A DNA stretch of 64,000 bases from Octopus vulgaris. Lineage: Eukaryota. The notes beneath the pieces are model-generated. The model ran no database searches. It was not told where the DNA came from and saw only the letters and a program-made list of their open reading frames with translations. The stretch lies in the NCBI GenBank assembly GCA_951406725.2, contig OX597819.1, positions 48,732,001-48,796,000 of the forward strand, read 5' to 3'. Position numbers and translations under genes: made by a program. Every line of letters starts with the position of its first letter. Positions within the stretch are counted from its first letter, which is position 1. Of this stretch, positions 45,276 through 46,062 are shown in pieces.

Positions 45276-46062
45276 ATCATCATCATCATCATCATTTAAC
45301 GTCCGCTTTCCATGCTAGCATGGGTTGGACGGTTCAACTGGGGTCTGGGGAGCCTGAAGGCTGCACCAGGCCAGTCAGATCTGGCAGTGTTTCTACAGCT
45401 GGATGCCCTTCCTAACGCCAACCACTCTGAGAGTGTAGTGGGTGATTTTATGTGCCACCGACACAGGTGCCAGACGAAGCTGGCGAACGGCCACGCTCGG
45501 ATGGTGTTTTTATGTGCCACCGACACAGGTGCCAGACAAGGCTAGCAGACGACCACGCTCGGATGGTGTTTTTATGTGCCACCGACACAGGTGCCAGACG
45601 AGGCTGGCGAACGGCCACGCTCGGATGGTGTTTTTATGTGCCACCGACACAGGTGCCAGACAAGGCTAGCAGACGACCACGCTCGGATGGTGTTTTTTTT
45701 TATGTGCCACCGACACAGGTGCCAGACGAGGCTGGCGAACGGCCACACTCGGATGGTGTTTTTATGTGCCACCGACACAGGTGCCAGACAAGGCTAGCAG
45801 ACGACCACGCTCGGATGGTGTTTTTATTGTGCCACCGACACAGGAGCCAGATTAGGCTGGCGATCGGCCACGATTGGATGGTGATTGTTACGTGCCCACA
45901 GCATGGAGGCCAGTCGGTGCGGTACTGGCTATGGCCACGTTCGGATGGTTTTCTTGTGTGCCACCGGCACTGGTACCACAAAGATACAAATTCCATTGAT
46001 GTTCATCTATTTTGATTTTGTTTGATTTTCACTTGCCTCAACAGGTCTTCACAAGTGTCACA
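45276..46062 (-). mobile_element. RTE LINE 3' UTR copy with expanded tandem array
   Basis: Reverse complement of 4570-5090 with extra units. Confidence 0.9.
45441..45970 (-). repeat. 62-bp tandem array (8 units plus a partial) with AB alternation
   Basis: Unit starts at 45451, 45513, 45575, 45637, 45703, 45765, 45828, 45891, 45957. Confidence 0.95.

Follow-up and report, generated by a model that had tools for sequence, protein, structure and literature searches.

The stretch analyzed here (the window) comprises 64,000 nt of the Octopus vulgaris genome (contig OX597819.1, positions 48,732,001 to 48,796,000). At 45277..46063 (−), the window carries the 5′-truncated 3′ end of a young RTE-type LINE, represented by its 3′ UTR only, the 5′ part of which is 98–100% identical to at least 40 places in the 2.8-Gb genome. 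In longer copies, the array region sits 3′ of the stop codon of a 1014-residue endonuclease-reverse transcriptase (RT) frame with Pfam Exo_endo_phos and RVT_1 matches above the cut-off and a PHD match below it (a weak PHD finger), confirming the LINE context proposed in an earlier note on this DNA, which had described the region as an RTE LINE 3′ UTR. In the longest copies, the 5′ part (~750 nt) showed no second long ORF. Copies of the LINE terminate in (GAT)n, and their 5′ truncation point varies. A single long ORF for APE endonuclease and RT with no separate ORF1, a short-tandem-repeat 3′ end, and 5′-truncated copies all fit membership of the RTE clade, a label resting on general features of the clade, the single ORF and the microsatellite end. 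The ORF has 1921 homologues at E ≤ 1e-50, nearly all of them unnamed among the 120 listed, and no relative was recovered from viral or prokaryote collections. Repbase/Dfam presumably already list the LINE family itself. At two other loci (L475 and L005), we noted an inverted LINE segment on the 5′ side, consistent with twin priming or with opposed neighboring insertions.

The array consists of nine cores at 45441–45971 (−), with TRF reporting a 62-bp period (×7.3) over 45441–45896, so that TRF and motif agree with the ~62-bp units and nine modules previously noted at 45441..45970. Each 62-bp unit comprises a linker, a GCCAG/CUGGC hairpin, and a 25–26-nt core of the form N-GUG-Y-N-GGUG-S-CAC-N-UAAAA(A)-(G)CACC, the sequence of which allows two crossing stems (5 + 4 bp, or 3–4 + 5 bp) with loops of 1/0/6–7 nt. 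Dinucleotide shuffles of one unit yielded this geometry by chance in 52 of 5000 cases, and the antisense strand yielded none. Following the element upstream from its (GAT)n microsatellite end (45277..45295, −), a conserved tail domain (45295..45440, −; about 145 nt after the terminal core) holds two conserved predicted stems and also occurs in lineages and elements without the core. The terminal 25-nt core (45441..45465, −), a predicted H-type pseudoknot, forms the 5′ edge of a block conserved across lineages and is adjoined by the GCCAG/CUGGC hairpin of the terminal unit (45469..45484, −), which lies in a spacer that probably represents an older, degenerate version of the core. Six internal intact modules follow (45503..45842, −; cores starting at 45503, 45565, 45627, 45689, 45755, and 45817), in which two unit types alternate to give a 124-bp higher-order repeat. 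The two oldest modules (45880..45971, −) are degenerate, with stem 2 broken in both of these 5′-most cores (45947–45971 and 45880–45905), leaving seven of the nine able to form the predicted pseudoknot. Four spacers aligned to a natural core better than letter-shuffled sequence (8, 14, 42, and 62 of 5000 shuffles), and given this resemblance the 62-bp unit is likely a dimer of an older 26-mer. A 189-aa plus-strand frame running across the array was taken as a by-product of the repeat.

Related arrays lie elsewhere in the window. These include a 5-module array of a slightly older subfamily of the same lineage (4660..4930, +), a 3-module array of an older A subfamily (20190..20344, −), a lineage-D array of 65–67 bp units with the ORF end upstream (58840..59130, +), a decayed lineage-D array (10360..10642, +), and a single lineage-F core with junction base C (46355..46380, +). 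The cores recovered match the earlier counts of 5 modules at 4660–4930, 3 at 20190–20340, and 1 at ~46355; the roughly 5 modules claimed at both 10360–10642 and 58840–59130 are about 5 by eye but 3–4 by motif. Two other frames were also seen. A 150-aa frame found by eye at 60686–61138 (−) resembles, judging from its motifs, the C-terminus of a Tc1/mariner transposase. At 2671–3123 (−), the end of a frame carries several C2H2 zinc-finger-like motifs and may be a remnant of a different LINE family, for instance the zinc-finger RTE of PMC9115989.

Fetched loci of the same genome, together with the window, yielded 412 distinct tails and 900 cores. The terminal core is found in eight lineages (A-young, A-old, B1, B2, C, D, E, and F) with diverged proteins and largely different upstream UTRs, and the ORF-end pieces of B1, B2, C, and D, which are decayed copies, share about 35–93% identity with protein P0001 (mostly 55–85%). 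Across 15 representatives, column identity is 0.98 in the inner core and 0.92 in the tail, compared to 0.67 in the six columns upstream, such that conservation begins at the 5′ edge of the core. The A-run anchor places lineage E in just 1 of 21, and the states given for this lineage come from a separate comparison. The core has been duplicated in five lineages with differing unit lengths (26 bp in B2; 26 and 47 bp in C; 62–67 bp in A and D; and 99 bp, including the tail, in B1), while E and F carry one core each. In lineage C (L311–L340), the UTR upstream of the cores holds tandem, partly duplicated copies of the ORF end, and this lineage thus duplicates more than the core. On a rough estimate, the genome holds 2 × 10^5 tails and 5 × 10^5 cores (970 kb yielded 70 tails and 220 hits to the motif, from which a background of 23 hits per 400 kb is subtracted). 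The genome-wide dispersal of the module claimed previously is supported.

The core is not universal, given that some elements use the tail without it. In the old lineage G, the tail is present and the core absent (24 hits to the pattern, three of which were misprinted at the edge of a locus), and most of 120 metagenome loci likewise have the tail without the core, in elements of about 270 bp with a sharp 5′ start; no core was found in the 80 nt inspected at the 120 loci. The tail had no match in viral contigs, and Rfam returned nothing on 10 of the 120 metagenome loci. Contigs of four of 20 runs (organisms A, D, and F) cover all 30 bins and are uninformative on expression or RNA ends. The metagenome elements (L121–L240, e.g., L159:1178–1415) appear in their own right as retroposed units that have the tail and the motif at the 3′ end in common with the LINE; they may be headless SINEs or 3′ fragments produced by processing or self-cleavage.

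Module number is highly variable. Copies about 1% apart carry 4–16 modules, with a mode of 8 in copies picked by the 5′ part (range 4–16; 26 of 26 complete) and a mode of 5 in those picked by the tail (range 4–9; 24 complete arrays of 40), the window copy being counted in both sets. The earlier claim that module number varies among copies therefore stands on near-identical copies elsewhere in the genome and not on the window copies alone, which belong to different LINE lineages and so do not by themselves show copy-number variation. The two unit types occur in the same alternating order at many loci, indicating that both were already present in the source element. Among eight copies sharing one ORF-end haplotype (27 of 35 rows kept), we counted 5, 8, 8, 8, 9, 9, 10, and 13 modules, and module number therefore changes per copy, at insertion or after. 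Partial-unit indels were present in 11 of 50 complete arrays, compared to 5 indels of at least 5 bp in 29.7 kb of ORF, and in L011 and L035 the deletions lie between TGGCAC repeats. Between two segmental duplicates (L036 and L037; 99.6% identical over 7 kb), the arrays are distinguished by small indels and a 37-bp deletion, which points to an assembly error or to change after insertion.

The extreme case is locus L421, where a 26-bp core is repeated 141.7 times (142 cores, 95% matches, with higher-order repeats) within an old element about 79% identical to its query; this array apparently expanded as DNA after insertion. Three minisatellites lie within 10 kb at L421, namely the core array (26 bp × 141.7, 848–4528), a 67-bp array (×8.7, 5325–5905), and a 22-bp array (×102 or more, 7737–10000), the latter two being of other origin and within 6 kb of the core array. 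The repeat that encloses the 67-bp array is, we presume, SINE-like. The LINE arrays also behave like ordinary unstable minisatellites.

Several features of the core favor the crossing stems. Both GUG (GTG) and both CAC triplets are nearly invariant, and the pseudoknot alone uses all four, the nested pairing of RNAalifold leaving two of them unpaired. Depending on the lineage, the single loop-1 base, previously noted as variable, is C, U, or A. At the junction, lineages A, C, D, and E have a G that adds to stem 1, and B1, B2, and F have a C that adds to stem 2. For the outer pair, we found C-G, U-G, U-A, or A-U by lineage; the A-purine mismatch at this position in E and F counts against the fold. 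In B1 and in unit D-2, stem 2 has undergone C-to-U changes that keep G-U pairs. The summed helix energy is steady across five examples at −14.3 to −16.0 kcal/mol, compared to −3.1 to −8.3 kcal/mol for the best nested fold, and the knot would outcompete the latter with loop penalties under about 7–11 kcal/mol. Paired columns are also less variable than unpaired ones, with 0.2 extra states per column in hairpin stems, 0.44 in pseudoknot stems, 0.86 in linkers, and 2.2 in hairpin loop ends (12 unit types). The difference was significant by permutation over the 12 unit types (p = 0.0004; p = 0.007 against linkers only) and over the eight internal types alone (p = 0.0005; p = 0.013 against linkers only). 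This test is to be read in light of how the units were collected; cores were profile-selected, internal cores with a profile that favors intact ones, the hairpin stems lie outside the detection profile but are required by the parsing pattern, and the unit types share ancestry.

Covariation, which had been put forward as a check on both stems, was not significant. Changes on both sides of a pair were found in 6 cells compared to 3.5 in shuffled alignments (117 of 500 shuffles as high; 23 representatives), the inner pairs being invariant, and fifteen terminal regions gave no covariation signal (194 of 500 shuffles). Overall, 87.9% of cells are paired in the pseudoknot compared to 86.2% when shuffled (17 of 500 shuffles; 23 natural representatives), and a plain 6-bp hairpin reaches 87.0%. 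The alternation of U-A and C-G at the outer pair, previously pointed out, sits on two CpGs and is explained by CpG decay; of 143 cores from clusters whose source had CG..CG, the 130 that were tabulated gave 22 compensatory and 23 non-compensatory double decays, and we rejected the alternation as covariation. Because the core is nearly self-complementary, nested folding joins neighboring cores into a 14-bp duplex (−40.9 kcal/mol, compared to −33.6 kcal/mol for local folding, with pseudoknots outside the model), and adjacent cores may form pairs with one another rather than knots. The array as a whole folds no better than its shuffles (z = −0.70), under a program (ViennaRNA) that cannot score the knot, and co-transcriptional folding may favor local stems. 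The compact H-type pseudoknot module of the earlier note is therefore upheld in that the core can form it and its paired positions are the more conserved, but not as regards covariation.

These results bear most directly on an alternative that dispenses with the pseudoknot, in which conservation of the core reflects primary sequence or simple hairpins, the array being a neutral minisatellite that derives from a transposon. The non-significant covariation, the variant pairs accounted for by CpG decay, the inter-unit duplexes that win in nested folding, the decay of the oldest modules, and the growth of a 142-core array in an old copy beside arrays of other origin would all be expected of such a minisatellite. 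Even so, the stems of internal units, too, evolve more slowly than linkers, and the junction swap and three-state loop-1 base fit two stems. Furthermore, what would be the loop of a simple hairpin (GGU) is nearly invariant and complementary to the invariant CACC. We therefore regard this alternative as rather unlikely, and the pseudoknot fold as plausible. As for the module itself, we consider it real, a conserved and probably structured part of the 3′ UTR with unusual repeated amplification.

A second alternative is that module number is itself selected, more pseudoknot-hairpin modules offering more protein-binding sites and sources with longer arrays transposing more. Duplication of the one core in five lineages, at a unit length particular to each, and the conservation of stems in internal units would fit selection for more modules. 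The most homogeneous subfamily (21 copies, 0.8% from its majority) has a mode of 8 modules, compared to a mode of 5 in six copies without the X unit, but the latter group is heterogeneous and its greater age uncertain. Against this idea, the single-core lineages E and F were also abundant, homogeneous arrays grow by mutation alone (as in L421), and stem 2 is lost in the oldest modules. On balance, we find it doubtful that module number is selected. We are equally doubtful of its broadest form, that a LINE clade has evolved a multivalent protein-binding RNA scaffold, multiplied independently in five lineages as more modules win retrotransposition. If this were true, roughly half a million structured modules would lie in the host genome, seeding long minisatellites.

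Finally, it is very improbable that the module acts as a nuclease block (xrRNA-like), self-cleaving ribozyme, or ribosome roadblock. Its geometry does resemble luteoviral-size knots followed by a hairpin, a layout proposed for the coremin xrRNA (PMC10321173, in part), but the coremin loop consensus (YGAD or YGNNAD) is missing, the stem-1 loop being N-GGUG, and, according to the same source, Xrn1 was not stalled by BWYV-type knots, whether or not a second hairpin was present. Among 150 mapped 5′ ends, 80 fall within arrays (including a few internal deletions and other-lineage rows), where they spread over all phases at 2–14 per 7-nt bin (about 8 expected). The fullest bin (14 of 80) lies at the core start, but no sharp cleavage or roadblock site was present among the 80, which argues against a ribozyme or an Xrn1 block. 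A luteoviral −1 frameshift signal is equally out of place, given that cores start at least 158 nt past the stop codon and that none has a slippery heptamer placed upstream, the sole heptamers being A-runs within a loop. Rfam, another check proposed earlier, gave no match on the array (E ≤ 10) or on three long copies (E ≤ 1) except microsatellite noise. The nuclease block, self-cleavage, and ribosome roadblock of the earlier note are thus not borne out.

Twister, HDV-like, and hammerhead ribozymes were likewise without an Rfam match on the array or the three long copies, while the same tool detected twister-P1 at other loci of this genome. These twister-P1-like motifs (L241, L242, L244, and L246; 1501–1556) have a best E-value of 1.8e-7, under the Rfam cut-off, and show that other RTE families in this genome bear twister-like motifs, a point in favor of a ribozyme; since the matches lie at loci other than the module, a twister origin was rejected. 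In L246, the motif lies 5′ of an endonuclease-RT frame. The domain directly after the twister-like motifs resembles the tail domain of the array-bearing LINE, hinting that a single RNA domain serves some RTEs at their 5′ end and others at their 3′ end. Twister motifs are reported at RTE 5′ ends in excerpts of PMC8501958 and PMC7761336, and excerpts of PMC11662667 give no activity for the cephalopod twisters tested in that paper.

The reading we prefer, held with even confidence, is that the endonuclease-RT protein of the element reads an RNA signal to which the knot of the terminal core belongs, and that slippage made the arrays. The conserved 26-nt core would fold as a compact H-type pseudoknot, and the protein of the element would recognize the terminal core and the downstream stems as reverse transcription starts. 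In several lineages the core would then have been tandemly duplicated by slippage between short direct repeats, probably at GCACC/TGGCAC microhomologies, either at the reverse transcription step or afterwards at the DNA level. The partial-unit indels, the deletions between TGGCAC repeats, and the spread of 5–13 modules on one ORF-end haplotype speak for slippage. Extra modules would be tolerated, mildly constrained spare copies decaying from the 5′ end rather than a tuned device. Of the three roles suggested in the earlier note, an RT/RNP platform would fit best, by analogy with the 3′ UTR pseudoknot of R2, which is the closest working model.

VNTRs and minisatellites that derive from transposons (e.g., the SVA VNTR and the 3′ UTR repeats of Ogre) have a tandem unit within a retroelement that varies between copies and can expand to long arrays after insertion; the LINE unit differs in being centered on a conserved core with a predicted structure and in having been re-duplicated at several unit lengths. 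In R2, the 3′ UTR has a pseudoknot-hinge-stem that the R2 protein binds and without which insertion fails (PMC12180492, in part). As in A-clade R2, the LINE has a non-LTR 3′ UTR in which a (predicted) pseudoknot and a close stem are conserved across diverged elements. R2, however, is site-specific whereas the array-bearing LINE is APE-type, and its knot is single and within about 65 nt of the primer, compared to 1–16 cores lying about 145–170 nt from the 3′ repeat in the LINE; structure and binding are proven in R2 and predicted in the LINE (PMC12180492). [quoted passage not shown] In size (about 26 nt), very short loop 1, and A-rich loop, the predicted H-type knot is like those of BWYV and PLRV, loop 1 being 1 nt in the LINE core (2 nt if the first stem-2 pair is open) and 2 nt in PLRV (PMC5416846 and PMC10321173, in part). 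The A-rich loop could sit in stem 1's minor groove. Unlike the luteoviral frameshift knots, the core lies in a 3′ UTR with no slippery site, and base triples are only conjectural. RTE-2_OV of Octopus vulgaris is also a single-ORF LINE of the RTE clade, with a C2H2 zinc finger and a mostly microsatellite 3′ UTR (excerpts of PMC9115989), unlike the PHD-like finger and 800-nt 3′ UTR with predicted structure of the array-bearing LINE. No description of the element or motif was found in the openly searchable literature (subscription papers, Repbase, and Dfam being outside this scope), including the accessible portions of PMC5786205, PMC9115989, PMC11662667, PMC6007223, PMC3747384, and PMC5416846. 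LINE 3′ recognition structures and transposon-derived VNTRs are known kinds, and the module is a variant of them.

RTE LINEs are widespread and often horizontally transferred, and their recognition of their own RNA has, to our knowledge, been little studied beyond predicted hairpins. In Octopus vulgaris, one 26-nt LINE motif seeds arrays of 2 to 142 copies, and the naturally occurring versions with 1, 5, and 8 modules make it testable what the RTE protein reads and whether module number alters transposition.
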